Below are positions 9,758 to 53,050 of a DNA stretch of 61,078 bases, piece by piece; the first letter of the stretch is position 1; each line of letters starts with the position of its first letter. The stretch is from Saccostrea cucullata (Eukaryota): assembly GCF_032062105.1 (NCBI RefSeq), contig NW_026940900.1:62001-123078 (forward strand), given 5' to 3'. The translations under genes and the position numbers were made by a program. The notes below the pieces were generated by a model. That model saw only the letters and a program-made list of their open reading frames with translations, was not told where the DNA came from and searched no databases.

Positions 9758-9983
9758 ACAACATATATATAAAAAAGATTAACACTTTACTTTAAAAGGA
9801 ATTTTAGTAATATATGTACATGTACAATGCATTTAAATGAAATATAGTTTTTAATAAATACCAGTATTTGGATTAGAAATTCTACAAATACACAAGGACA
9901 ATGAACCAAACACATTATGTAAAATATATAAAAATTTATTTTCAAAAAAGTCAATATGAGATATAAATAATTTGACATCAGGG

Positions 9984-11679: not shown

Positions 11680-12062
11680 AGGATCAATTTGTCCTTCCAT
11701 AAGCTGACTGCATTCTGATTCTGGTTCCTATCATATGGAAAGCGAACCAGCAAAATATTTAGTAAAGCGTACACATGTGTCATGACCCTTTCTTTATTAA
11801 TTTGAAAGACTTATAAAGATTGTTTTAAAAAAATTATTGTTCTCTGTTTTTTCTACACTAAACTGAAAGAATTCGATGACATTTAACAAGATAAAAATCT
11901 TGATAAAAGAATACGCTTTACTTCGAAATAGAAATCGTTCGAGTTAACCAACAAGTTAAAAATAGATATTTTATTTATAGACCTTTATAAACACATTTCA
12001 TTTTGATTTTCTTCTATATTAACGAGGATAGCGTGTGTAGCAGTTCTGTAACGATTGATTCG
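11680..12062. promoter_or_regulatory. Putative bidirectional promoter between SDHAF1/TAMM41 (-) and KCTD3/SHKBP1 (+)
   Basis: Divergent genes. A candidate 5' exon donor (CTG|GTAGGC) at 11679/11678 on - and the KCTD3 ATG at 12063 leave <400 bp between them. Confidence 0.55.
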
Positions 12063-15000
12063 ATGCCAGGAGACGTGATTCACCTCAATGTAGGAGGAAC
12101 AAGGTAAGAAAAGAAGTAATTTAGTAAAATTTCGTTTGTTAAAAATTTTCTGCAGCAAAGTAGTTGCATTTGATTTGTTGTTGCTCATCAAATATGGTTG
12201 CTCCACTATTACATGAGAGTTTCTTTTTCATACAGGTTTTCAACATCAAGACATACCCTGACATGGATTCCAGATTCGTTCTTTACAAGGTATGATTAAA
12301 TCTTAAAAAAGAAAATGCATTGAGTGAGGTACTGTTTAAAACAATATAATGCCCAATTTTTTTAGCCTAGTATCCCCTGGCATGTTCTTGAAATCAAGGG
12401 TGGCGGTCAACCGAGTTTGATTGCTGATGGCCAGATAGCTCAGTCGGTAGAGCACCTGATCAGAGATTCAGGGGGCCAGGGTTCGAATCCCGGTCTGTTC
12501 CACTGCATTTTCTCCTCTCCCTTTACATTTGATGTCGTGACCATGCCCTAGAACCAGAAATGAGCGGGGGTTGGGGTCTTTAGAGGCCAAAGACCTTTAA
12601 GGAGGGAGGAATGTGGCAGTCAGCTGGGTTCGTTCTCCGCTGGCCAATTGTAGCTCAGTGGGTACAGCACCTGACCAGAGATTCAGGGGGCCCAAAGTTT
12701 GAATCATGGTCTGGTCTACTGCATTTTTCTCCTCTCTCCTAACACAAGTAAATATTCTCCTTTCTCCTAACACAAGTAAATTTGCAAAATTTACTGTCAA
12801 AACATTAGATCCTCCTAATTATGTTCCCCAAACGAAGTTGGGGAACATATTGTTTTTACTCTGTTTCTTATTATTATTAAGGTCTTCCATTTCCAACGGA
12901 AGACCTTTCTGTTATTCTTAGGTTTCTTTTCCAGTTTTTTTCTTTTTTTTCTTACCGATTTTGTGCACGCGAGTTCTCGGAAACGGCTTGTTCGATTTTC
13001 ATGAAACTTTCAGGGCTGATGGAACATCAAAAAATCTAGATATATATTTTTTAATTTTGATGACGTCACTTCCGGTTCCGAGATTTTTGCATTTTAGTGA
13101 ATTTCAGAGGGTTAGTTTGTCCGCGAGTTTTCTCGAAAACGGCTTAAAATAGAAACTTGAGATTTTCAGTGATAATAGAGCAATAAATGTAGTTGTGCGG
13201 AACGTATTTCATATTCACCGAAATTGCTTTGTACGGAAGCTAGTTTTGGCCCGAAAATAGTCCTATCGCGAATTTCAAAAATTTTTACACCTTTTCATCG
13301 ATAACTTTTTACCTAGAAATATTTTTTTAAAACATGTATAACAAAAGAAGTGTAGAATTCCAAGATCTTTCAAATGATATCTCGAAAAAAGGGCTGGCCC
13401 CTAAAATTAAGGGCCTAGCGGGGTCGAAAGTTTTTCTTTTATATCTCAAAAAGTATTGAGAATTTGTAATACGTCAAAGAAGCAAAATTGTTCAAAATGT
13501 TAAGCTTCATTTATTGGAGTCATCAAAATACGTCCGGCGACGTCACTTCCGGCCAAACCGGAAGTAGTCAGAAAACGCATATTTTGGCCGTTCTTGACAA
13601 GATTTTGGGTATCATCTGTCACTGGGAGCCTAAAAATTAAATTTCCATCCGTCGTCATCACTTCCGGTCAAACCGAAAGTAGCAAAAATTAGCTTATTTC
13701 TGCTTTAATTAACATAGATTTTGAGGATTTAAACCATTTTTCGGCATTATTACTCAATTTTGTTACAAATAAAAGTAACTTCCGGTCAAACAGGACGGAA
13801 GACCTACTCGTTGCTTTGCAACGAGCTTTGCTCTAGTTATGTTCCCCAAACGAAGTTGGGGAACATATTGTTTTTACTCTGTTTCTTATTATTAAGGTCT
13901 TCCGTCTTCACGGAAGACCTTATAGTGATTCTACTGTTTCTTATTATTCTTTTTATTATTTTTTTGACTTTATAATTTTGTGCACGCGATTTCTCGAAGA
14001 CTACTGGATGGAATGACGTAAAACTTTCAGAAAAGATGTGTCGTAACATGAATTTTGTATATCCGAGAGAAAATTTGGAAACTCACTTCCGGTGCCAAGT
14101 TACGGACAATTTCCTGAAATTAAAATGACATTTTGTCCTCGATTAAACTTAAAAACGGTAAAAGATATCAACATGAAACTTTCAGGGATTATAGATCGTG
14201 ATATATACTATCCAGGACGCGACTTTATGTTCGTCGTCGGTACTTCCTGTCGTTAGGTGAAGGGGATTGAAAAAATCGCATTTTCTAACTTTTTTGTTTT
14301 TCAATATTTTTTATTTATTTTTGGAATATTAATAGAGACACTTCTATTGATGCTTACTATATAAGTTGTTTGAATATTGGTTAATCTGAACTCTAGATAT
14401 TAATATTTGAAAATCTGAAGCGGGTCCAAGATGGCGTCTGCCTCTGTCAACTCCGCCATTTCGCGAGTAGGGGTTTATGGAGGCAGCTGAGCGTTTGATT
14501 AAACCATTCTGACATAATGATACATGAAATGTAAAAAACTACTTGGACTTTCACGTAGTAGTACGTTGTAATTACGTGTCAATCTTAAAACTTAATTTCC
14601 GTTTCACTGCTTTAGTTTAACTGGGCTAGATACGATATGTAATGTGTACAATGTGTTAAATATACCTTCTTAACGTCGAAATAAAATAAAGGCGATAAGA
14701 ACGTTTTATTAATTTAATTTCATTGAAGCTATCACACCTATTTAATAGATCAGTCCAAAGAAAAGGTGCAAACATTTACTCATGGCGTTTGGCGCGAAAT
14801 TATGAATAGTGGCCGGTCGTTTATAATTCTTAGACAGGTGTACTGTTGCAAATGTATACACAAGTATATTTAGAGCACTGCTCCCAATAGCTTAATGGTT
14901 TTCGTGTTAATCAAACACGAAGTAATTACGTTACAATTCTGTGTCAAAATAAAGATGTATTCCAGAGTCTTCTCAAACGTCTTCTGTGACTGGTTTTGGT

Positions 15001-18000
15001 TGGTTCTCAAAGTAGAAAAAGAAAAGACTAAATGTGCAAATGAGAGATACCTACCATCATTTGCTTTACAAGATGGAAATACAGATCTTTAATCATAGTT
15101 AAAAGTTATAGTTTTTTCAAGAAACAATATCGATGCATGTACATATAGTAAGTATAAAACGTATAACCACTGTTTTTCCCATGCACACTTGTGTGACATT
15201 AAACGAATAGAAAAGACAAAAATAAGAAAACCATTTTAATAAGATCGTCTAATGTAGTTTAAATTAACATTCTTTTCTCAAAGATCTGAATCAAGTTATT
15301 GAACATGAATGGTATCTGATTCCTTGACTGTCGTAGAGCGAGGCATGTTTTTTCGGCGAAACATTTCAACCTTTTTTTTTAAGTGTAACTAGTCGGTATA
15401 GTTCACTTCTGAGACGGAAAAAAAATTAAATTATGGTAATTTTCACTGCTTTTGTGTTACTTTTCTGTAGAATGTGTACAGTGTGTTAAATATATTTTCT
15501 AAACCTCGAAATGTAGGCTATGAGAACGTTCTTTTTTCTTAATTTCATTGAAGCTATCACACCTATTTAATAGATCAGTCCAAAGAAAAGGCGCGAAGAT
15601 TTAACGTGGCGTTTGGCGCGAAATTATGAATAATGGTCCGTCTTTTATAATTCTTAGACAGGTGTACTGTAGCAAAAGTATACACAAGTACATTTAGAGC
15701 AGCACTCTCAATAGCGTAATGGTTAGCGCGTAGGGGATAAAAGGGAAAAAAAGCGGATCGGATTTTCGCGCTGGCGACCTGGATTCAATTTTTGACCAAA
15801 ATTTTTTATTCACCTCTCAGCTCGACTTTACGAGTTTTTTTTCCAGAATCGGACGGAAGACCTCTCGTTGCTCGCAACGAGATCGTTTCTAGTTATTATT
15901 ATTAAGGTCTTCCGACTTCCTTCGGAAGACCTTATTGTTATTCGTCTGTTTTTTATTATTATTATTATTATTCTTTTTTTCATAGTTAGGGCGATATCTC
16001 AGCTGTGCGTGGACGGATTTGGAAGATTTTTACAGGGATGATGCATCATGAAAATATCTCCAGACGTGTTTTTCATTTTTTCAAAATTCACCTTCGTTCG
16101 CGATTTTTGGGGATTTTTGTATTTTTTAAAAGGCATTTTGTCCAGCAGTTTTCTCGAGAACGGCTAAAGATATGAAAGTGAAACTCACTGAGGTGATAGA
16201 ACATCAAACTCCATTATGGGGAACGGCCTTTATTTTTCGTCGTCGGCACTTCCGGTCGCAAACGGAAGTGAATTCAAAAAGTCCCATTTCTCAACTCTTT
16301 TGTTTTTCAATATTTTTCTTTAGAATTTACAGGGTTAATAGTGTGTCTTATGAGAATTCTAAATATGTGTTTAGTATCTTGATGCGTGCATATATTGAAA
16401 AGATATGACCAAACCAAACTTTCTCCTACCGTCGGGGGTTCGAATCCCGCTGTGGGCGTTTCAAATTTTTTTTCTTTGTTTCTGTCTTTTTTCAGCTTCA
16501 AATGACTTTTATATCTTTCATATCACATATGGAATATTTTGCCGATTTTTAAAAGCTTTTTTTTGAGATTTTTGAGGAATACCTGTAATTATCATGATAT
16601 ATGTTGAGAGACTGTTGTAAATAAACGTGAGCAAAAAATACATTCTGAAATCTATTTCATGGGATGACGCAGCATAGAACTCTAAAGAAAAGTCGGTCGG
16701 AAGACCTGCTTGTTGCTCCAGCAACAAGAACGCATCTAGTTATTATTATTTTTCTTCTTCTTCTTCCTGGGTACTTTTTTGTCCGGGAATGATCTTGTAA
16801 ACTGTTCGTCCGAGGTAGGTTAAACCTTTTTAGGGTAAGTAGACATGTTATGCAGATTTGCGGAATCAAGGTCATTTTGCGCGCACGTGCTTGCAAGAGC
16901 GCGCACGTGCAACACTTGAAATAACCAATATAATAGATATAGTCGGAACTTTTCTATTTTTTGATAAAATGCTTTGAAACTCATAATGTAAGGATACATT
17001 AGTAGTATAGACAAGATGGCATGGTCAAAATAGCAAGATCTCACGCGCATGCACGTGCGCTTCGCTCTGATTGGCTGAAACTAAAGTCTCAATATCTTTC
17101 TTGTTTCTTGTCATAATCTTTTGAAATTTTGAACATGGTCCTACATTATGAAGATCTAGAGCATGATATATTAAAATTTTAATAAAAGCATGCGCATGCG
17201 CATGTGCTGTAATCTGATTGGCTAAAACTTTAAATGGCTATATCTCCTTTGTTTTTTGACGAAGTGCTTTGAAATTTAAAACATAGTCATGCATTACGAT
17301 ATCCTAAAATATGATATAGAAAATATTCATGAAATCACGCGCATGCACGTGTGCTGCAATCTGATTGGCTGAAACTTCAAATGGCTATAACTTTCTTGTT
17401 TTTCAACCAAACAGGATGGGATTTAGAACTTGGATAAATATAAGGGACTCCTACAAGAAGGTGTAGTCATTATGCACGTGCTTGCACGTGTGTGCACGTC
17501 AAATGAGTAAAATAAAAAATACACTCGAATGAGTGCATTTTTTAATACTTTTGGATTAAATGCTTTGATATTATTAAAATTTTAGATAGTGTAGACAAGA
17601 TAAGATGGTCTTTACACAAATGAACACGCGTGCAATGCCTATTTTTTAAATATATTTTGTATTTTTCTTGGAAGACCTTGATTAAGTCTAAATTCCATAA
17701 AGTATTTCTTATTTAATAGAGATAACAGGGAATATGGCACCAAAAGGGTGTTGGGAAGCGTTTGGGGAACATCTGTAACAGTCCCCGTTACAATTAGCAC
17801 TAGTTAAGGTCTTCCGTTTTCACGGAAGACCTTCTAGTGATTCTACTGTTTCTTATTATTATTATTATTATTATTATTATTTTTTTCCCCAAAATTTTGT
17901 GCACGCGATTTCTCGAAAACTATTCAGTGGTTTTTAATTAAACTTTCAGGAATTATGCGTCATTATATGAAGTTGTGGCATGATAGAAAAATTTGGAATA

Positions 18001-18992
18001 CTCACCTTTGGTTCCAAGTTATTGACACTTTTCTGATATTAAAATGCAATTTTGTCCCCCCTTTTTTTCGAAAATGGTTTAAGATATTAACTGGAGACCT
18101 TTTAGAGATGAAAGATGATGACTTTTAGATATGACGAATCACCTATTCGTGTGTCGTCGGTACTTCCGGTTGCTGCCGGAAGCGAAATTAAAAAGTCCGC
18201 ATTTTCTAACTTTTTTGTTTTTCAATATTTTTCATTTATTTTTGGAATGGTAATAGAGACCCTTCTTATAATGCTTACTGTATGATTTGTTTGAATATTG
18301 ATAAATCCAAACTCTAGATATTAACAATTAAAAATCTGAAGCGAGTCCAAAATGGCGGCCGTCTCTGTCAACTCCGACATTTCGCAATAGGGGTTTACGG
18401 AGGCAGCCGAACGTTTGCTTGAACGAAAGTTACATAGGGACAAATGAAATGTAAAGGAATACTTGGATTTTCACGTCATAGTTACGTTGCAATTTTGTGT
18501 TAAACTACGTTCTTCTTAAACGTCTTCGAATTCTATAATTGGTTTTGACTGGTTCTCAAAGTAAAAAAAGGTGTTACTTGCTTACATACTATATGGACTT
18601 TGTAAAATGTGTTAAATATACTTTCTAATCGTCGAATTTTAGGTTACATGAACGGTTTTTTTATTTCATTGAAGCTATCACACGTATTAAATAGAACATT
18701 TCATAGAAAAGGCGCCAAGATTAACTCGTGGCGTTTGGGCGAAATTATGAATAGTGACTAGCCTTTTATAATTCTAAAACAAAAGCACTGTTATACAGAG
18801 GTATATACATAAAGATTTAGAGCAGAGGTCCCAATAGCGTAATATTTAGCGCGTTCGATTTTCATGCTGGCGACTTGGATTCAATCTCCCTTGAGTGCAA
18901 TAATTTTTTTTACATTTTCATCTCGACTTTACGTTTTTTTTAACGGAATCGGACGGAAGACCTCTCGTTGCTCGCAACGAGATCGTATCTAG

Positions 18993-19023
<31 letters not shown>

Positions 19024-22000
19024 CTACTGATTCGTTTGTTTCTTTTCCACTATTATTATTATTATTATTTTTTTTCTTACCGATTTTGTGCAGGCGATTT
19101 CTCGAGAACGCCTCGACAGATCTTTATGAAACTTTCAGCAATGATGGCAAATCATATGAACTTAAGGCGTTTTTTTTAATTTTGCCGTCGTCACTTCCGG
19201 TCGCGAGATACGGCCAATTTTCTTTTTTTAAAGTGTCATTTTGTCCGGAAGTGTTCTCAAAAACGGTATGAGATTGAGTCTTGAAACTTTCAGGGATGAT
19301 AGATTGTGACAGGCTCTCTTGAATTTTGTATAAAGTTTTTGTTGCCGTCACGTCCGTTGTCCACCGGAAGTAGTTTAAAAATATGCAAAATTTTATTTTT
19401 TTCTTTTTTAAATATTTCTTATATAGGCAAATAGAGTGTCTCGAGTATTATTATGTCCACCGGAAGTTATTTTTTCCAAACCGGAAGTAGTCCAAAAAAT
19501 GAGCATTTTTCATCGAAATTATCAGGGATGATTCCTTCACACTCAGAGAGGAGTTATAGGTCATTTTTAGTACTTCCGGTCACACCGGAAGTGAATTATA
19601 AAGACCGGAAGTTGTCTGAAATTTACAAATTTCACTCTTAAATGTGTTCTCACGTATTTAGAAGAATTGATATGAACTTTTTTTTTATTTTAAGTTGTTT
19701 TATGATCGTATCAAAAATCGAACGGAAGACCTACTCGTTGCTTGCAACGAGATCTCCTCTAGTTAAGGTCTTTCGTCTTCACGGAAGACCTTATAGTTAT
19801 TCTACTGTTTCTTATTATTATTATTATTATTCTTATTTTTTTTCCCAAAATTTTGTGCACGCGATTTCTCAGCAACTATTCGGCGGATTTCTATGAAATT
19901 TTCAGGAATTATGCGCAATAAGATGAACTTGATACATTTTTAAGGAAATTTGGAAATTTGCTTCTGGTGCCAAGTTATGGGCAATTTCCTGATTTTAAAA
20001 TGCAATTTTGTCGCCCCTTTTTTTCGAAAATGGCTAAAGATATGAACTGGAGACTTATTGGAGATGATAGTTCGTGACTTTGTGGTTTGCAGAATCACCT
20101 TTTTGTGCGTCGTCAGTTCTTCCGGTTGTAACGAGATGCAAATTTAAAAAAATCGTATTTTCTAACTTTTTTGTTTTTCAGTATTTTTCATTTATTTTTG
20201 GTTTGTTAATAGAAACCCTCCTGATAATGCTTACTATATAATTTGTTTGAATGTTGATCAATCTAAACTCTAGATATTAGCATTCAAAAATCTGAAGCGG
20301 GTCCAAAATGGCGGCTGTCTCTGTCAACGCCGACATTTCGCAATAGGGATTTACGGAGGCAGTCGAGCGTTTGCTTGAATGAAAGTAACATAAGGATAAA
20401 TGAAATGTATAGGAATACTTGGATAGTCACGTCATAGTTACGTTGCAGTTCTGTGTCAAACTAACTTCTTGTATAATTGGTTTTGGCTAGTTCCCAAAGT
20501 TGAAAAAGAAAAGACTAAATGTGCAAATAAAATTCGATACCTAATATCTTTTGTGCACCACGGAAAATAGATCTCATCAAATTTATAAGTAATACTTTCT
20601 CAAAAAAGAATATTGATTAATATTGTCAGTAGAAATCTTAACCACTGTTTTTCCTATGCACACTTGTGTCATATTAAACTAATAAATAAGACAAAAATAA
20701 GAAGACGATTTTTTTAAAGATCGCTTCATGGAGTTTATTTTAGCATTCTTGTCTCAAAGACCTGATTCAAGTTATGGAGCATAAATGATATCTGATTCCT
20801 TGACCATCATAGGGCGAGCCATGTTTTTCGGCGAAACGTTTCAACCTTTTTCAATTAACTAATCGGGATAGTTTACTTTGGGGATAAACAGGAAATTGAA
20901 AAAAGTTAGAAATTCATAACCATTTCACCGCTTTAGTGTTACAGGCATATATACCATATGGAATTTGTAAAATGTGTTAAATATACTTTCTAAACCTCGA
21001 ATCTTAGGCTATAAGAATGTTCTTTTTTTAATTTCATTGAAGCTATCACACCTATTTACTAGAACATTCCAAAGAAAAGGTGCGAAGATTAACTCGTGGC
21101 GTTAGGTGCTAAATTTTGAATAGTGACCCGCCTTTCATAATTTTAAAAGAGAATCACTGTTTCATAAATATATATAAATAGATTTAGAGAAGAGGTCCCG
21201 ATAGCGTAATATTTAGTGCCGTCGGAATTTCATGCTGGCTACATGGGTTCAATTCTCCTTGTGTGCAATTTTTTTTTTACTTTTTCAGCTCGATTTTACG
21301 TTTTCTTTCCGGAATCGGACGGAAGACCTCTCGTTGCTCGCAACGAGTTTCTCATCTAGTTATTATTATTTTTCTTCTCGGGAAAATATTGTCCGCGAAT
21401 GATCTTGTAAAGTACACATCCGATTAAGGGGAAACCTTTTTAGGGTAAGTAGGCATGTTATGTAGATTTGCGGAACGAAGGTCATTTTGCGCGCACGTGC
21501 TTGCAAGAGCGCGCACGTGCAACACGTGAAATGACCAATATACTTGAAATTGCCGTAACTTTTACATTTTTCGATGTAATGCTTTGATTTTTATAATATA
21601 TAGACACATTATAAATGTAGGTAAGATGACATTGTCAACATGCCATTTTGTGTGCACGTGCTTGCAAGAGCGCGCACGAGCAACACGTGAAATGACCGAT
21701 TTAATTGATATAGGCGTATATTTTTACCTTTTTGATGAAATGCTTTGAAACTCATAATATAAGGATATAGTAGTAGCATAGACAATATGACATGGTCAAA
21801 ATAGCAAGATCTCACGCGCATGCACGTGTGCTTTGCTCTGATTGGCTGAAACTAAAGTCTCAAAATCTTTCTTGTTTTTTTATGAAATCATTTGAAATTT
21901 TGAACATAGCCATGCATTAGGATATCCTACAACATGAAATATAACAATTTTCATGAAAACACGTGCATGCACGTGCGCTGCAATCTGATTGGCTGAAACT

Positions 22001-25000
22001 TTAAATAGCCACAACTCCCTTGGTTTTCAACCAAACAGGATGGGATTTGGAACATAGATAGATATAATAGACTTCTACAAGAAGGTATGGTCACCATGCA
22101 CATCCATACACGTGCGTGTACGTGCGCTGCAATGTGATTGGCTGAAACTTTAAATAGCTATAACTCCCTTAGTTTTCAACCAAACAAGATGGGATTTGGA
22201 ACATAGATAAATATTATGGACTTCTACAAGAAGGTATGATCACCAAGCACATCAATACACGTGCGTGTTCGTACGCTGCAATCTGATTGGCTGAAACTTT
22301 AATCAGCTATAACTCCCTTGGTTTTCAACCAAACGGAGTGGGATTTAGAACATAGATAGATGTAATGGACTTCTACAAGAAGGTATGTCACCATGCTCAT
22401 GTATGCACGGGCGTGCACGTGAAATTAGTAAAATCAAAAAAACACTTGAATGAGCGTATTTTTTAATACTTTTGGATTAAATACTTTAATATTTAGTAAA
22501 TTTAAGTATATAGATTGTGTAAACAAGATGATATGGTCATTACGCACATGCATTAACATGCGCACGCGTGCAATGCTAAAATTTGAATGAACTTGGTACC
22601 CATCTGGGTAAACGTTCTAAAAGTCTCAAATGCATAAAGATTGTCTTATTTAATGAAGCTTATAGGGAATATGGCACCAAAAGGGAGATGGGGAGGGTTT
22701 GGGGAACATCTGTAACGGTCCCCGTTACAATTAGCACTAGTTTGGATATGGATTTTAATGAACTTAATCATAAGAATGTTTTTAAAACGTATTCATCATT
22801 TTACATTATTTTTTTTTTCAGTATGCTGAGTGGCAGGATATCATCCCAGATGGATGAAACTGGTGCAGTAAGTGATTGAAATCATTTTCATCAATATAAG
22901 ACTTGATTACAATATTATATTAAATGTCATTTTGGAATAATGACTCATTTCTTTTCAGATTTTTATTGACAGAGATCCGGTGATATTTTCTGTGATACTG
23001 AACTTTATGAGAACCAAGGAAGTAGATTTTGGGTATAGGACCTTTTAATACATTCCAAATTGTCATTTAGAGGAATGAATCAACCTTTGTGATAATGTGG
23101 AGTAAAAGTATAGAATGGCTTGATAAATGATCCAATTTTCTGTACTTTATTGTACTTTTGACAGAAGCACTGAACTGTGTAAACATACATGTATGAGAAA
23201 AACAGAAAAAAAAATATGCATTGCATACTAGTATACATAAATGCCATTTCAGTTGTGTTGAAACAACTAAATGCTTATTGATGATCTGTATCTTGTTATT
23301 TCAGAAGTGTTGACATATCAGCCCTCCGCCATGAAGCAGAATATTTTGGCATTACCCCTTTAGGTATACTTGTATTGTATTTTGTTCTATTTTCATTCAG
23401 AACTCTTGTTTTCTTTTTTTTAATGATTTTTTTTGTTCTAATTTTAATGAAATATAGACCACAATACTTGCATTCTTTCTCAATTACTGACATACTGAAC
23501 AGATATTAAACTCTTTAATGTAAATTTACTTGTCGATTTTCAGTCATTATCTTTGTAAGATTACAAAAATTATGCATTGCTATATTTTTCTAAACTAACA
23601 AAACAGCAATATGATTATTTTCCTAACCAAATACACTTATAAGATGAATATTTTGAATAACTTCAATTCTTATATAGATAGAGATATTTAGTCTATTACA
23701 CATATATTTCTATGATAACAGTGAGACGTTTGACTCTGTGTGAAGATCTTGAACATGCTTCCTGTGGTGATGTCTTATTCCATGGCTATCTTAACCCACC
23801 AGGTTAGTGTCATCTATATCACATCTTCATCCACCAGATAAAGTTAAACATGAAAAGCCTTAATCCCCCAAATAATTGTATGTGTATTACAGTACCCTGA
23901 TCTACCAAATCAATGTAAAACGAACATTGCTTACTGGTAATTGTGTTCATAGATTTTTTTAATCTACAGTAGTTTACCAGGGAAAAAAGCATTAAAATTT
24001 CATGAACTTATGGGACAAATGAAAATAAAGGAAACTGATTAAAATGTGTTGAAAATATGATTATTAGAAAAAAATAAAAAATATTTTACATTTGAATTTG
24101 TAGAACCACCCCTACCTCCTCCTAAAGTAGAGAAAAAGAGGCATTCTGTGTCTGTGGTTGGGTCTTCAGGTACAGCTCCTTCTCATGCCAGGAGCCCTAG
24201 TACCACTTCCAGGTACCTATGTCTGTCACATAATCTTACTTAGTGTTAATGTAAAATTACATTTAGTACAGTTGAGCACTGTTAATCTGGACCTTTGTGT
24301 TTTCAAGTAATTTGTCATGATTAATGAAGCATCTGGGTAATACTGAAACATAGCATATATAATTGTGTAAATTGTGTTGCCCCAATTTTCTGCTGGAATG
24401 TAAAGTGTTCAGAATATTGGGTGTCCAGATCACCAAGGATCAGCTGTTTTATGGAGAGTAGATATATTTTTTTTTTTACACAAGCATTGCATACAAAATG
24501 ATATTTGAGTTTCTATTATTTAGACATGAGTCCCAGAGCCCAAGATCCCCTCGCCCAGTGTCTGAGACGTGTAGTTCCCCCCAGGTCAACGAACTTAGAC
24601 CTGTCCGTCCCGCATCAGAAGTTCTACCCAGCCATTCTGCTGATGTGGACAAAATACAAACCCATCACAGTAAGTCAAGGAATAGAGGGTAGCAGACCAA
24701 AAAATTCATTTTGTTTAGGATTGAATGTTTAAGTTCTAAGGACAGAAGGCAGAAAAAAGACAGGGATATATTAATTTGTTTGTTTGCTTCTGCAGGTCAT
24801 GAGGAACCTTTGAAAGTCACCATGGTGAGAGGTCATCACAACTGGCTCTGTGTGGCTTATCCCCATTTTGTGTGCTGCTTCAGGTAAAATTTGTCTATGT
24901 TTATGGAATTGTTTTTTCTTAACAATGAACAAACTTGCTACACTTGTAAAACTAAATTTCTCCATATAGAACTCTCTTGCTTTAACTAAACTACTCAATA

Positions 25001-36051: not shown

Positions 36052-38739
36052 ATGATCACATTTTGTCCGTAGTACGTCTGTCCACCTGTAAACTTTTCAC
36101 ATTTTCAACTGCTTCTCAAGAACCACTGGGCCAATTTTAACCAAAGTTAAAATAAAGCATCCTTGGGGGATGGGGAGTTTAAATTATTAAAGTAAAGGCC
36201 CAAGTCCCCTTCCAAGGGGAGATAATCAAGAAAAGACAAAAATATGGTGGGGTCATTACAAAATCTTTTTCTCAAGAACCACTGGGCCAGGAAAGCTGAA
36301 ACTTATGTGGAAGCATCCTTGGGTAGTGTAGATATTCAATTTTTAAATCATGACCCCGGATTATAGGGTGGGGCCACAGTAGGGAATCCAAAATTTACAC
36401 ATAAATGTATAGAAAAAATCTTTACATGTAATAATCTTCTTCTCAAGAACCACTGGACCTGGAAAGCTGAAACTTATGTGGAAGCATCCTTGGGTAGTGT
36501 AGATATTAAATTTTTAAATCATGACCCCGGGGTAGGGCAGGGCCACAATAGGGAATCCAAGTTTTACATAGAAGTATTAGGAAAAATCTTTTAAGAATCT
36601 TCTTCTTAAAAACCATTGGGCCAGGAAAGCTGAAACTAATGTAGAAGCATCCTGGGGTAGTGTAGATTCTAAAGTATTAAAATCATGAAAGGCGAGGGGG
36701 TAGGGGGGCTCTATAGGTATAGCAAGAGGGAAAATCTGGTAAAGAACTGCATCACCCAAGCTACTTAGGTGAGTGATGTGGCCCATGGGCCTCTTGTTGT
36801 CCTATCTGTCTGTCTGTTTGTTTGTTTGCAAACTTTAACCTTCACCCTAACTTTTGAACCATGAAAGATAGAGACTTCGTATTTGGTATGCATACTCCAA
36901 TAATTAAGCTCTTTCAAATGAAACCAAGGTCAATGACCTTGTGACTGCATATTTGATATTTACTCATCAAGTTCTTTCAAATGATATCAAAATCAATGGC
37001 CTTGTGACTTTGACTGTGACATAAGACAGTTTTTTAAAAATTGTGTTGCCGCCGGGCGCATAGTGTTGCACAAACACATCTTGTTTCAAATTAATTTTAA
37101 GAAAATTGTATACAATTTTACATAGAATTATTTTATTTTTTCAGACTAATCAATTACAGATTTTCTAACCAATTGACATCATTCCGACCTATTAATGGTT
37201 AACTGGTTACAAACTGCCATCCCTACAATAAATCATTATCATCAAATTCACATACAGTATATTTTTGTCTGGAATGTTTTTTGACGGCTAGTTTCTAGTT
37301 CTTTAACATTATAAAGGTTAATGTATTTGTCTTTGAATTTTCAGATGTGGGATTTAACTACAGCTTTGGATAAAATGGTCAAGACTGAACAAGGTTAGAA
37401 AATGTCTGAAGTAATACAGAAAACATCTTTTATAATGTATATATCTCACAGGAATGTGGTAAATCCTACGTTATAGCTGGTGTACTTTATAAACAGAGAC
37501 CAGAAGTCCTCAGTACACCTTTACCGTGAACACAATCAAACCACTAGTGTGTTATCAATATTTTAAAGTATGTTTGGTATGTAAGATACAAGATTTACAG
37601 ATATATTTGGTTTCATTTCTTCTATTACAAAAGATTTATAGTCAAGAACAGTTTATTTCCGCAAGCGATAAATATTTTAAAAGCGTGAAGTACACTGTAC
37701 ATTGTACTGCACAATCTTGATGATCGTCAAATCATTTTAAAAAGTCTGTAATGTTTGTCTGGTTGGCCTTATGACATTTATTTACAAAATTTTCACTTAT
37801 GAGAGATCGAAAAAACACTGTCTTTCACATCTTTAAATAAATTTTTGCAAGTTTAGTTGTAAATTTGGTAAATGCAGACCTGTGAAATCATTTTAATTTG
37901 TGGGGGTCTATGTTTGTGGGCAAATTTTATTTGTTCTTGAGGAGGTTATTTCTTTAAATAGGTAACTTGAATATGGAAGATTCAATGAAAGAATACACTA
38001 GTATCCACAAAATAAAAAATCTTGGGATGTAAATTCATGGGAAAAGGATGAACTACAAAATCCACAAACATTGGTCCCCCACGAGCAGAGATGATTTCAT
38101 ATTATTTTAAACATGCACTTCTTCCAGTATACAAGATTATGTGCTACGAGCTTTCAAACTTTTCCTTTATACTTGACAGGAACAGTGAAGGATGGTGGAC
38201 CCACTGCCAAAGAACTGGTGAAACTCCTTGAACAATGTGACCTTTCTTCCTCAAGGTCACCCACCCCTTGTGTCAGCAGAACCCCCTCTGTGATTCACAT
38301 GGCCCCACCTCAGCACGGGGCAACTTCTGGTAGGAGGAATTTGTACTTTTGCAGATATTCTAGGATTTTAAAGTTGTATGGATTTTTTAAAATGAAATTT
38401 GGGATTATGGTGGGGCAAAAATTGAGGATTTGATCAGCTTCAATCATTTTTATTGTCAAACATTTTTTTCTTTATAATTTATGCAATATAAAATGGGTAA
38501 AAATCCTTTGTGAAATTAATCAGGGTATTTCACTAAGTGCTACCATTTTGACACAATGGCATAAATATTCAAGAATTTCACAAAATTTCCATTTTTTGGC
38601 AGTGCCTAATACCAGTAATATCCTTACTTTTGAAGGTCCATGGATAATGCAGACAGAAACAGAGAGTCTTGGAGAAGGGGCCACAGGAGGGGACTACATG
38701 GAAACAGTAGAAACAGACACACAGGTCACAAGAATTTGA
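12063..38739 (+). CDS. KCTD3: BTB/POZ + WD40-like protein KCTD3 / SH3KBP1-binding protein 1 homolog, ~20 coding exons
   Basis: Phase-consistent GT-AG exons: 12063-12103, 12236-12289, 22822-22867, 22959-23032, 23305-23363, 23722-23802, 24104-24212, 24524-24669, 24796-24883, 25105-25289, 26682-26797, 27302-27389, 27482-27598, 27892-28062, 28415-28570, 28794-28890, 29258-29390, 37345-37393, 38180-38329, 38603(or 38636)-38739. Motifs [88 protein letters not shown]. Homolog of both vertebrate paralogs. Confidence 0.93.
12404..12740 (+). mobile_element. Dimeric tRNA-derived SINE-like sequence (tRNA-like heads at 12429-12502 and 12642-12718)
   Basis: A box TAGCTCAGTCGGTAGAGC, CCTGA/TCAGG stem with an 8-nt loop, and B box GGTTCGAATCCC. 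A second, more decayed copy lies 213 bp downstream with the same tail (CTGCATTTTCTCCTCTC). Confidence 0.7.
12879..13836 (+). mobile_element. Non-autonomous Helentron-like element B1
   Basis: 5' AAGGTCTTCC..GGAAGACCT; 3' CGGAAGACCT, hairpin CTCGTTGC-TTT-GCAACGAG and CTAG|TT. Confidence 0.85.
13894..15892 (+). mobile_element. Non-autonomous Helentron-like element B2 (internal duplication ~14600-14920 / ~15440-15730)
   Basis: B-type termini; body homologous to B4 and B6. Confidence 0.85.
15904..16739 (+). mobile_element. Non-autonomous Helentron-like element B3
   Basis: 5' AGGTCTTCCGAC..TCGGAAGACCT; 3' GTCGGAAGACCT, CTTGTTGCT-CC-AGCAACAAG and CTAG|TT. Confidence 0.85.
17806..18992 (+). mobile_element. 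Non-autonomous Helentron-like element B4
   Basis: B-type termini, with (TTA)n after the 5' hairpin. Confidence 0.85.
18995..19762 (+). mobile_element. Non-autonomous Helentron-like element B5
   Basis: 5' AGGTCTTCCGTT..AACGGAAGACCT; 3' AACGGAAGACCT, CTCGTTGC-TT-GCAACGAG and CTAG|TT. Confidence 0.85.
19765..21359 (+). mobile_element. Non-autonomous Helentron-like element B6
   Basis: B-type termini; body homologous to B2 and B4. Confidence 0.85.
25497..26537. mobile_element. Possible non-autonomous TTAA-targeting DNA transposon (Kolobok-like) in KCTD3 intron 10
   Basis: TTAA|GGGGAGACAGGGAAC ... GTCCTGTTCCTCC|TTAA: imperfect inverted termini flanked by TTAA. Confidence 0.5.
29534..30547. mobile_element. 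Tc1/mariner-superfamily MITE nested in the hAT element
   Basis: TA|CAGTAAAACTTCTC.ACACCGGCC ... GGCCGGTTTGGAGAAGTTTCACTG|TA. Confidence 0.8.
31085..31470 (+). mobile_element. 3'-truncated non-autonomous Helentron D copy (left arm of composite)
   Basis: TT|AGCTCACCTGAGCCGAAGGCTTAAGTGAGCT, then GTCC-type microsatellite and ~2 satellite-like repeats. Homology to 36018-36796 stops at ~31470, before the terminal hairpin. Confidence 0.85.
32332..34065 (-). CDS. RING-less TRIM-like protein: two B-boxes, coiled coil and NHL-type beta-propeller, 577 aa, intronless CDS, nested antisense in KCTD3 intron 17
   Basis: C..C...[18 protein letters not shown] and CKIH...[13 protein letters not shown]....HHGH B-boxes, helical middle region, and repeats [45 protein letters not shown]. 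Acceptor TTTCAG lies directly before the ATG; candidate non-coding exon donor GTAAGT at 35663. Confidence 0.92.
34116..35404 (-). mobile_element. Decayed full-length mariner element (1289 bp) in the 5'UTR intron of the TRIM-like gene
   Basis: TA|TGAGGGCTGTTCAATAAATAAT ... ATTATTTATTGAACAGCCCTCG|TA. Minus-strand transposase remnants: KWVL (WVP-like), LHDSV (LHDNA-like), SDL*PFDLF (SPDLAPxDF-like) and GSAIFQY, broken by stops and frameshifts. Confidence 0.85.
36018..36796 (+). mobile_element. Complete non-autonomous Helentron D copy with ~156-171-bp satellite-like repeats (right arm of composite)
   Basis: TT|AGCTCACCTGAGCCGAAGGCTCAAGTGAGCT ... CTTAGGTGAG, GGCCCATGGGCC palindrome and TCTTG|TT. 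Repeats start at 36117, 36273, 36444 and 36607. Architecture matches oyster Helentron-associated elements that carry satellite DNA. Confidence 0.88.
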
Positions 38740-39391
38740 TCAGAGACTAAAAAGGAGCAGCATTTAAATGACTTTTAAAATGAGCATATTTATTGAATGA
38801 GATATTTGCACTGTAATGTTATTTTAAATGCCATTTTGTCAAGAGCATACATCATAAGCATCAATGATATGATGGCTTCATTACATTAATTTTTAGATTT
38901 TCTTACATTGTGTGTGTGATAAGTTGGTACGTCACTGTTCTTATCATTTAATCTTAACATTTTCAGTGAAAATGCAGACTTTACAATTCACTGTTTTATA
39001 GTGGATTGTAGTACAATTAATTGTTTGAATCTCGGACAGGCGTTGATGATCAAAAGAATTCCTTTTTATCCCTTTCACTGTCACTATGTGTGAAGAGATT
39101 TAGAAAAACATACAAATATGTCTCGAGGCATAATTTATTTTCTCCCCAATTTGACAATGTGATGTATCATGTCCTTATTATATGTTTCATTATTAATGAA
39201 TTCTTTGTAATATTAATAGAAATTGTTATTCCATTACAACACAAAATAAAATGTTAAAAACATTTGCATTCTTTTTAATTCATTATGCATGGAGGGCATT
39301 GCAGCAGCATGCACATGTGCTTAATTGATTTTATATCAATGTTTGTGTACATTTAAGTTTGTCAATTTGTTGTGTTAATTACTTAAGTATT

Positions 39392-40382
39392 TATAACCCC
39401 CGCAAACGAAGTTTGGGGGGGTATATAGGAATCACCTTGTCCATCTGTCTGTGCAAATGTGTCCGGTCCATATCTTTCTTACAGAGGAACATTAGAATCT
39501 GCTACTCCACAAAAGACAGCCCATGACCTAAGGGTGTGTCATGACCTTGACCCAAGGTCATTTGGGGAAGTTCAAGGTCACTGGAAGAAAAAATTCAGAA
39601 TTCGTGTCCAGTTCATATCTTTCTTATGGATAAACTTGGTAAGTTCTAATTTCACACAAAGATTGCTTATAACCTAAGGGTTTGTTATGACTTTGACCCA
39701 AGGTCATTTGGGGAAGTTCAAGGTCACTGGAAAAAAAATTTCATAATTCGTGTCCGGTCCATATCTTTCTTATGGATAAACTTGCTAGGTTCTTATGTCA
39801 CACAAAGATTCCTCCTGACCTAAGGGTGTGTCATGACCTTGAACCAAGGTCATATGGGGAAGTTCAAGGTCACTGGAAGAAAAAATTCATAATTTGTGTC
39901 CAGTCCATATCTTTCTTATGGATAAACTTGGTAGGTTCTCATTTCACACAAAGATTCCTCCTGACCTAAGGATGTGTCATGAACTTGGGTCAAGGTCATT
40001 TGGGGAAGTTCAAGGTCACTGGAAGAAAAATTTTATAATTTGTGTCCATATCTTTCTTTATTATGGAAAATCTTGAATTTACTACTTCACACAAATGTTG
40101 CTTATAACCTGAGGTTGTGTCATGACTTTAAACCAAGGTCATTTATGCCAATTCAAGGTCACTGACAGAAAAAGTTCATAATTCCTGTCTGGTTCGTATA
40201 TTTAGTCTATTTTTATTATTAGGCTGCACCTTCGTTTCATTTATAAAAAATATAATGAGCAACTACATTTGCACTAAAAATGTTTTAGCATTTCTCTCTT
40301 CTCTTAGATCCATAAAATATTCATGATTTAGCAGTTCTGAATAAACCAGCGGGGGGTATTTTGTCCCGTTTGGACAGTTCTA
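39392..40382 (+). mobile_element. Non-autonomous Helentron-like element with ~5 copies of a 146-bp repeat
   Basis: 5' TATAACCCCCGCAAACGAAGTTTGGGGGGGTATA plus microsatellite. GTCC.GT.CATATC repeats near 39461, 39606, 39752, 39898 and 40044. 3' GCGGGGGGTAT, TGTCC..GGACA and TTCTAATT. Confidence 0.8.
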
Positions 40383-52593: not shown

Positions 52594-52981
52594 TTATGAT
52601 AGCCTTAAATTCTAGAATGAACTGCAATGTCATGATTGTCAGGATTACATATTACTTTATAATGATTTTCTTTACACCAGTGTGTTGTGCGTCTTGTAGA
52701 AAATGAAATACTTTTCATATAATTAAGACTGTCCTAAATATAAAGATTTGCCAAAAAAGTATTATCCAATGAACATTTCATTTTCTACAACAGTTTTATA
52801 ATATACAATAGTAACAAAAAGTAGGTACTAGGTAGAACATGCTCTTACTGCATCAAGTTGGAGACAAAAACTCAGACGAGGTAGCAAATCCAAAAAGAAC
52901 AACCCCCCCCCCCCCCCCTCCCCTAGAATCACTGTACCTGACAAGAAGAATATATATGCTAGTAATGATAAATTTATGTGG

Positions 52982-53050
<69 letters not shown>

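Follow-up and report, generated by a model that had tools for sequence, protein, structure and literature searches.

A nested stack of eight Helentron-type elements in an oyster intron and a probable insertion bias towards resident heads

Introduction

A 61,078-nucleotide stretch of the genome of the oyster Saccostrea cucullata (NCBI RefSeq assembly GCF_032062105.1, contig NW_026940900.1, positions 62,001 to 123,078 of the forward strand; this whole stretch is called the window here) contains a KCTD3-like BTB/POZ host gene, one intron of which is occupied by a stack of eight transposable elements. The elements belong to two families, here named A and B, lie inside or directly against one another, and all point the same way. 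How such a stack arises, and what incoming elements recognise when they land in it, are the questions that this locus raises. The original prediction, made from the sequence alone, held that B elements, and A itself, prefer the microsatellite of A elements or the end of an earlier insertion, so that an array would grow at one fixed and safe site. Here we report that the eight elements are separate insertions and that they probably accumulated one after another, mobilised in trans, at a TNNT|T site that renews itself, with the stretch just behind the heads of resident elements genuinely favoured.

Results

The order of the stack is A1[B1, A2[B2, B3], B4, B5, B6], with two family A and six family B elements over 9,922 bp. 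A census of termini found heads and tails in equal number, six of each for B and two of each for A, within 12820-22741, all on the + strand, and no further A or B ends outside the stack in the 61-kb window. The B head is palindromic, AGGTCTTCCG...CGGAAGACCT. Element boundaries were drawn from the first T to CTAGT (T|T convention); the limits predicted originally (12821..22740) differ by one T per side, an ambiguity that is inherent in the junctions. All elements are given here on the + strand. The A1 head (12820..12877) lies at the host site TAAT|T and consists of a 5' subterminal inverted repeat (subTIR), an inverted repeat (IR) with a 12-bp stem, and the first part of a TTA tract. It is followed by B1 (12878..13837), a non-autonomous HINE of 960 bp with an 11-bp subTIR carrying one mismatch, one mismatch in its head stem, a 3' stem-loop and a CTAGT end. 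The A2 head (13838..13892), which matches the first 55 bases of the A1 head without a difference, is followed by the HINE B2 (13893..15893; 2001 bp, 12-bp perfect subTIR), which has a 260-bp duplication (85% alike) in its interior. A 9-nt piece of the A2 TTA tract (15894..15902) separates B2 from B3 (15903..16740), an 838-bp HINE that also has a 12-bp perfect subTIR and is the most divergent B element (62-66% to the other B copies).

The body and tail of A2 (16741..17804) comprise the remainder of its TTA tract, 147-bp tandem repeats, the 3' subTIR, a stem-loop and CTAGT. Three more HINEs then stand in a row: B4 (17805..18993; 1189 bp, 11-bp perfect subTIR, 84% to B6), B5 (18994..19763; 770 bp, 12-bp perfect subTIR, 73% to B1 over the first 300 bp) and B6 (19764..21360; 1597 bp, 12-bp subTIR with one mismatch, one C>T in the head). 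The stack closes with the body and tail of A1 (21361..22741), containing the remainder of the TTA tract, 161-/149-bp tandem repeats, a 13-bp 3' subTIR, a stem-loop and CTAGT. As predicted, no host DNA lies between the elements: the junctions B1|A2, A2|B4, B4|B5 and B5|B6 have zero spacer bases, and only the 9-nt A2 piece intervenes between B2 and B3. In silico removal of the inserts yielded A elements of 1439 and 1128 bp, with the TTA tract in phase in both heads. Census and excision together confirm the predicted eight-element nest in one orientation, which is the sole properly nested parse that gives both A heads a body. Five elements share one junction inside A1, and the sequence fits their arrival there from either the head side or the tail side.

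The terminal structures of the eight elements were then compared. All eight have a subTIR pair (11-14 bp, 0-1 mismatch) ending 30-33 nt before the 3' end, a 5' hairpin formed by an IR complementary to the subTIR that folds with a 10-13-bp stem, a 3' stem-loop (6-8-bp stem) ending 11-13 nt from the element end, and a CTAG(T) 3' end. A TTA microsatellite stands downstream of the head hairpin and is short or decayed in B1 and B2. In B3 and B5 the head and tail subTIRs co-vary, matching at a variable position. No stop-free frame in the stack is longer than 107 codons. To assess copy number and joints, we used four public sequencing runs (X1, X3, X5 and X6), whose contigs, from at most three samples, were aligned to 11800-23400 at 80% likeness. 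Both families are highly repeated, the summed depth in X1 being 10^4 to 6 x 10^5 over the stack compared to 60-87 on the unique flanks.

By their subTIRs, 5' IR with microsatellite, 3' palindrome, non-coding sequence and high copy number, the eight elements are non-autonomous elements of the HLE2 (Helentron, Helitron2)/HINE type (HLE2 definition: PMC11417382, cited throughout from excerpts, as are PMC7492417, PMC4067079, PMC3288121, PMC7992393, PMC13085455 and 10.64898/2026.02.10.705023). We use "Helentron-type" as a label for families known here from non-autonomous copies, a strict Helentron needing an autonomous partner with the same termini that encodes a Rep-helicase and an apurinic/apyrimidinic (AP) endonuclease. 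Assignment to the canonical Helitrons (HLE1) was rejected, as the 5' TC start and A|T target are absent and the elements start with TA after T. They do have one HLE1-like trait, a 3' hairpin plus a CTRR-type end, and oyster elements combining a CTAG end with subTIRs have been noted (PMC7992393). The elements are not a new class, and families A and B may already carry Repbase names. All eight junction pairs read T|T; a duplication within the TTA tract would be invisible, so the absence of a target-site duplication (TSD) is not readable there.

The eight elements are separate insertions and not a concatemer, because all eight have matched termini and are at most 84% alike. Outside short tails, aligned parts of the B elements are 62-84% alike; B2, B4 and B6 form one subfamily (72-84%), and the A1 and A2 bodies are 70-78% alike. 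With B lengths of 770-2001 bp, two families and a nested order, the stack lacks the near-identical head-to-tail units of a rolling-circle concatemer or tandem array of one element, and the original argument from the differing bodies is borne out. The window contains neither long identical repeats nor N letters. In run X6, the unique flank depth was 0.14 and 0, and X6 contigs matched parts of B4, B5 and B2 with 5/317, 4/238 and 8/230 differences (98.4, 98.3 and 96.5%). Since X6 matches these elements despite almost no flank depth, closer relatives of B4, B5 and B2 lie elsewhere, and local duplication or a concatemer is therefore disfavoured. Two side observations came from the same alignments. 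In each of the four runs, many contigs enter B1 at position 13247 from an upstream sequence other than that of B1, which suggests that a common B subfamily has only the 3' part of B1. In X1 contigs the alignment ends at 12324 and resumes at 22812, with 275 and 298 unaligned letters; the intron of the X1 oyster differs from that of the window, from which absence of the stack does not follow.

What B elements recognise was examined by scanning metagenome contigs for the exact B head pattern, which gave at least 121 loci. Among the loci listed, 75 were kept, with 112 B heads, all from two assemblies rich in AT-rich animal DNA; 46 of the 121, from other assemblies, were excluded by eye as unrelated hairpins. 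Matches in viral contigs (1) and prokaryote genomes (44) were left out of the counts. Locus classes were assigned automatically and checked by eye, which overturned the calls of L052 (A head) and L066 (B head); two loci that follow CTAGT without an element tail (L014 and L051) were counted as host. The 75 loci have distinct flanks and share B heads, A heads and the other HINE family of the window, and their B bodies are only 62-83% alike to those of the window. Their source would appear, from these likenesses, to be a related animal of another species than that of the window.

Of 59 host-class loci, in which host DNA precedes the first exact head, three were dropped for a damaged start, leaving 56 host sites. 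These revealed a TNNT|T motif, with T at -4 in 54/56 (p = 7 x 10^-24 versus 33% T) and T at -1 in 55/56, a base that the element itself may contribute. Position -3 was A, T or C (no G), position -2 was A, T or G (no C), and nothing was seen further upstream. The commonest words were TTAT (18), TAAT (12), TATT (7), TTTT (6), TCAT (5) and TAGT (5). A long TTA run was not a feature of the host sites, none of the 56 having two or more TTA units. The basic target of B is the general motif TNNT|T rather than the microsatellite itself. A strictly target-specific transposon was also considered and rejected, since 67 of the 112 B heads lie in unrelated host DNA of the related species at a motif of 4-5 bases.

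All eight window junctions fit this motif, namely TAAT once (A1 in host DNA), TTAT three times and TAGT four times. Because the elements begin with T and end in CTAGT, both junctions read TNNT|T after any insertion. The predicted regeneration of the target by each insertion thus holds, TAGT|T and TTAT|T both fitting the motif. In the first 90 nt of the heads, weighted motif sites amounted to 24-102 on the + strand compared to 0.1-4 on the - strand. The single orientation of the stack follows from this arrangement, as the TTA tract and the CTAGT end offer TNNT|T on one strand only.

The 75 loci were next classified by what the B heads had entered. Of the 112 B heads, 67 lie in host DNA and 45 inside another head (41 in B heads, 4 in A-type heads). 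Head-in-head loci make up 33/75, or at least 26/68 after collapsing look-alike pairs (38-44%), whereas the motif alone would give 0.3-4.7% for 10^4-10^5 heads in a genome of 0.6-1 Gb, 1 Gb being an assumed upper bound. Chains of two to five B heads occur in 25 of the 75 loci, and their 37 inner junctions have an offset of 32-69 nt in 35/37 and read TTAT|T in 32/37. Four further loci follow a partial B head and four follow an A-type head (L064, L079, L093 and L107, the last with a different hairpin on the same plan); in L016 an A-type head lies within a B head. Where head pairs could be scored, 27/32 were heterotypic. Five loci (L091, L016, L033, L040 and L053) have four to five B heads within ~200-350 bp, mostly of different subtypes and with no tails visible. 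A B head after the tail of an earlier element was found in 0/75 loci, short-read contigs rarely crossing an element body, and the only B tail seen (L042) is followed by TA. A comparison of decay between outer and inner heads (outer more decayed in 12 versus 5, with 18 ties) was not used, as contigs end soon after an intact head.

Element-to-element joints also occur in the runs aligned to the stack. In near relatives, tail-TTA-head joints were found at 13836>13889 (depth 1490, 322 and 324 in X1, X3 and X5) and at 13836>13886 (773 in X1), with spacers of 3 or 6 nt of TTA compared to 9 nt in the window. A head-in-head joint of two B elements, 13939>18993, had a depth of 612, 9 and 84 in X1, X3 and X5. 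Flank depths were ~60-87 (X1), 6-10 (X3) and 4-8 (X5), which places the joints at ~7-79 times the flank in X1 and X5.

The stack itself has the same bias. All seven inserts lie in heads or junctions and none in bodies, though the bodies hold ~74% of the weighted sites. Under a motif-weighted null, seven non-body inserts out of seven gave p ~9 x 10^-5 in the stack and ~3 x 10^-10 in the window, values that are rough, order-free and post hoc. Collectively, these results indicate that heads of either family receive more insertions than the motif accounts for and that family A is not special in the related-animal loci. The original prediction is partly supported: microsatellites of heads are hit far above chance, and the tabulation of B flanks that it had proposed gave, in the related animal, an enrichment in heads, but one not specific to A (of 112 B heads, 4 had entered A-type heads, 41 B heads and 67 host DNA).

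The stack-bearing intron (12290..22821, +) is 10,532 bp long and is the second intron counted from the ATG exon. It is bounded by coding exon 2 (12236..12289, +) and coding exon 3 (22822..22867, +), both in frame with AG/GT borders; coding exon 1 with the ATG (12063..12103, +) begins a frame that is kept through the next five exons. The first six exons have GT/AG borders and in-frame joins, and a later exon matches the KCTD3-like protein of Saccostrea cucullata over 62/62 aa (100%; 89% to Ostrea edulis). At 9,922 of 10,532 bp, the stack takes up 94.2% of the intron, as predicted (~94%). Two tRNA-like copies of the short interspersed nuclear element (SINE) type (12400-12527 and 12613-12744, 78% alike) lie just upstream of the stack in the same intron, the second followed by a 28-bp tandem duplication. 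Stack and SINE-type copies fill most of the intron, and unique intron DNA is scarce.

Elsewhere in the window, two Pearl/Cg170-type HINEs (31080-31470 and 36013-36790) have a AGCTCACC head hairpin, a GTCC tract and ~165-bp repeats that resemble CL1 arrays (PMC7492417 supplement); the heads of both are free of A or B insertions. A HINE-like element at 39390-40203 has a family A-like head hairpin (CCCC...AAACGAAGTTTGGGG) and 4.7 copies of a 146-bp repeat. A 156-bp satellite-like repeat (5.4 copies, 92% matches) at 1-840 is cut by the window start, and an unclassified repeat at 32339-32975 is 72-78% alike to L064 and L081. Three sequences resembling miniature inverted-repeat transposable elements (60312-61054, 34114-35406 and 52594-53554) are bounded by inverted repeats of 28, 29 and 79 bp, respectively, the last beside TTAT tracts.

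Discussion

In our view the stack probably originated by serial insertion into a TNNT|T site that was renewed each time, with resident heads favoured. A Rep-helicase provided in trans likely mobilised each element, which would have been joined at TNNT|T without target duplication. A1 would have arrived first, at TAAT|T in the intron, and the site with the highest score (TTAT|T) would then have lain in its TTA tract, on a single strand. With TNNT|T rebuilt at both junctions by each insert, the site would remain available to further elements in the same orientation. Attraction to heads beyond the 5-base motif, a more tentative step than the others, would most likely reflect binding of the transposase to the hairpin of the resident head or local opening of the DNA there. 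Parts of the stack, for example A2 together with B2 and B3, may have come ready-made.

Several observations weigh against this account. The flank statistics come from another species than that of the window, and none of the six B heads in the stack contains an insert, although nested insertions in the related animal fall mainly in B heads. The head numbers (10^4-10^5) behind the motif-only expectation are rough, as summed contig depth is not copy number, and the motif weights come from 55 sites. An exact-pattern search in short-read contigs favours multi-head loci, and only 34 of all 75 loci have at least 60 nt downstream. Two-headed composites that move as units, as modelled in PMC5148889, inflate the head-in-head counts, and nine loci share look-alike pairs. 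Host sites show no excess of upstream hairpins (4/56 versus 18/185 controls, p = 0.79), and hence a hairpin is not needed for insertion. No contig crosses the stack and no empty-site joint was seen among the 15 of 945 joints listed, which exclude TTA-tract positions. No autonomous partner was found, and no genome search aimed at one was made.

The alternative of greatest weight, though an unlikely one, is composite transposition, in which blocks built elsewhere by nesting or by bypass of the 3' stem-loop arrived as two or three units, with few independent hits at this site. Such composites are known for FoHeli (PMC5148889), maize (PMC3288121) and HelenXT233 (PMC11417382). Look-alike head pairs recur in different flanks (L033/L112, and the group L007/L053/L058/L082), and tail-TTA-head joints reach tens of times single-copy depth, as this explanation would have it. 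Most head pairs are unique, however. In the stack neither A element has lost its head or its body, their tracts are in phase and no B lacks a tail of its own, whereas the FoHeli model loses the outer body. Composites also shift the nesting elsewhere without explaining it. That motif and survival alone produced the stack appears less probable still. On this explanation any TNNT|T serves for insertion, good sites are dense in TTA tracts, inserts into old intronic elements do no harm and persist, and the stack is the tail of a random distribution. The families are indeed very abundant, heads carry several top-weighted sites and 67/112 B heads are in host DNA, at the motif alone. Yet bodies are equally harmless and offer about three quarters of the weighted sites without having received any of the seven inserts, and head-in-head loci, at 38-44%, far exceed the at most ~5% expected.

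A local tandem duplication or rolling-circle concatemer that has since diverged, or an assembly artefact, is very improbable. The common subfamily of B2, B4 and B6, the identity of the A heads over 55 nt and the order of a B1-type then a B2-type element, seen twice, are what a duplication could leave. Against it, lengths and interiors differ, closer relatives occur elsewhere, and the absence of long identical repeats and of N letters speaks against both duplication and artefact. In elements of this kind the termini are a conserved part, and A heads almost identical to these are present in another species (L079 and L093).

A bolder form of the serial-insertion account seems doubtful to us. The Rep-helicase would be recruited by the resident head hairpin and would integrate at a set distance behind it, so that the newest inserts lie head-side and older ones are pushed inward. 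The stack would then be a polarised, dated record with B6 oldest and B1 newest, and elements would bring a landing pad with them, a device for self-targeting shaped by evolution that would also breed new multi-headed families.

The serial-insertion account can be set beside several known systems. A lepidopteran Helitron-like family, to go by a title, reportedly disrupts GAAA tracts. The HINE plan of 5' subTIR, IR and microsatellite, central tandem repeats, and 3' subTIR with palindrome has been described for Cg_HINE of Crassostrea gigas (PMC7492417) and for HINE/DINE-1-like elements (PMC4067079). Those elements lack a TSD, and share the TT target and the absence of coding sequence with the elements here. 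The microsatellite differs, being TTA here and GTCY-like in Cg_HINE (PMC7492417). The four A/B subTIR words have no match in the text of the PMC7492417 supplement with Table S2, a weak negative as the table splits words, and the excerpted main text of that paper mentions no nesting in heads. FoHeli1 and FoHeli2 of Fusarium oxysporum (PMC5148889) are also HLE2, with hairpins at both ends and a TNAT|T target close to TNNT|T, and their several short 5' termini per copy are explained by self-insertion. In contrast to the oyster stack, with eight complete elements of two families, five of them at one junction, and a head-borne TTA target, FoHeli copies mostly have several heads with one tail, and their duplicated pieces vary from 31 to 85 nt.

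Clustering and nesting of distantly related rolling-circle elements near or inside others are known for maize and bat Helitrons (PMC3288121; PMC4067079), 17.6% of maize helA having several 5' termini (PMC3288121). These differ in being HLE1 with A|T targets, and the excerpts state no fixed position in the resident. For Paramecium telomeric Helitrons (PMC13085455), one-strand insertion into a simple repeat has been proposed to fix orientation and leave repeat blocks between copies. Those Helitrons are autonomous, form a separate clade and target the host telomeric repeat, whereas the elements of the present families bring the repeat with them, and the majority of copies lie at plain host sites. 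HelenXT233 of Xenopus tropicalis (PMC11417382), an HLE2, has two non-identical left termini in direct repeat, but is one autonomous family with two termini, and the excerpts describe no stack of whole elements. HINEs are major variants in oysters, and the excerpted report (10.64898/2026.02.10.705023) has nothing on nesting. We found no literature on head-directed stacking of oyster HINEs in the sources searched, subscription papers lying outside the search.

The locus is real and striking, and is a variant of already known behaviour: self-insertion is known for such transposons, while a strong bias to heads appears not to have been measured so far. HLE2 target choice is mostly described as "TT", to which our results add a TNNT|T motif and a tenfold or larger excess just behind resident heads. 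They also carry a warning, as repeat libraries and copy counts of oyster HINEs mix nested and composite ends. If true in the window's own genome, this bias would account for Helitrons with several heads, for stacks on one strand and for the growth of oyster introns by kilobases, and would offer a direct test of transposase attraction to resident termini.

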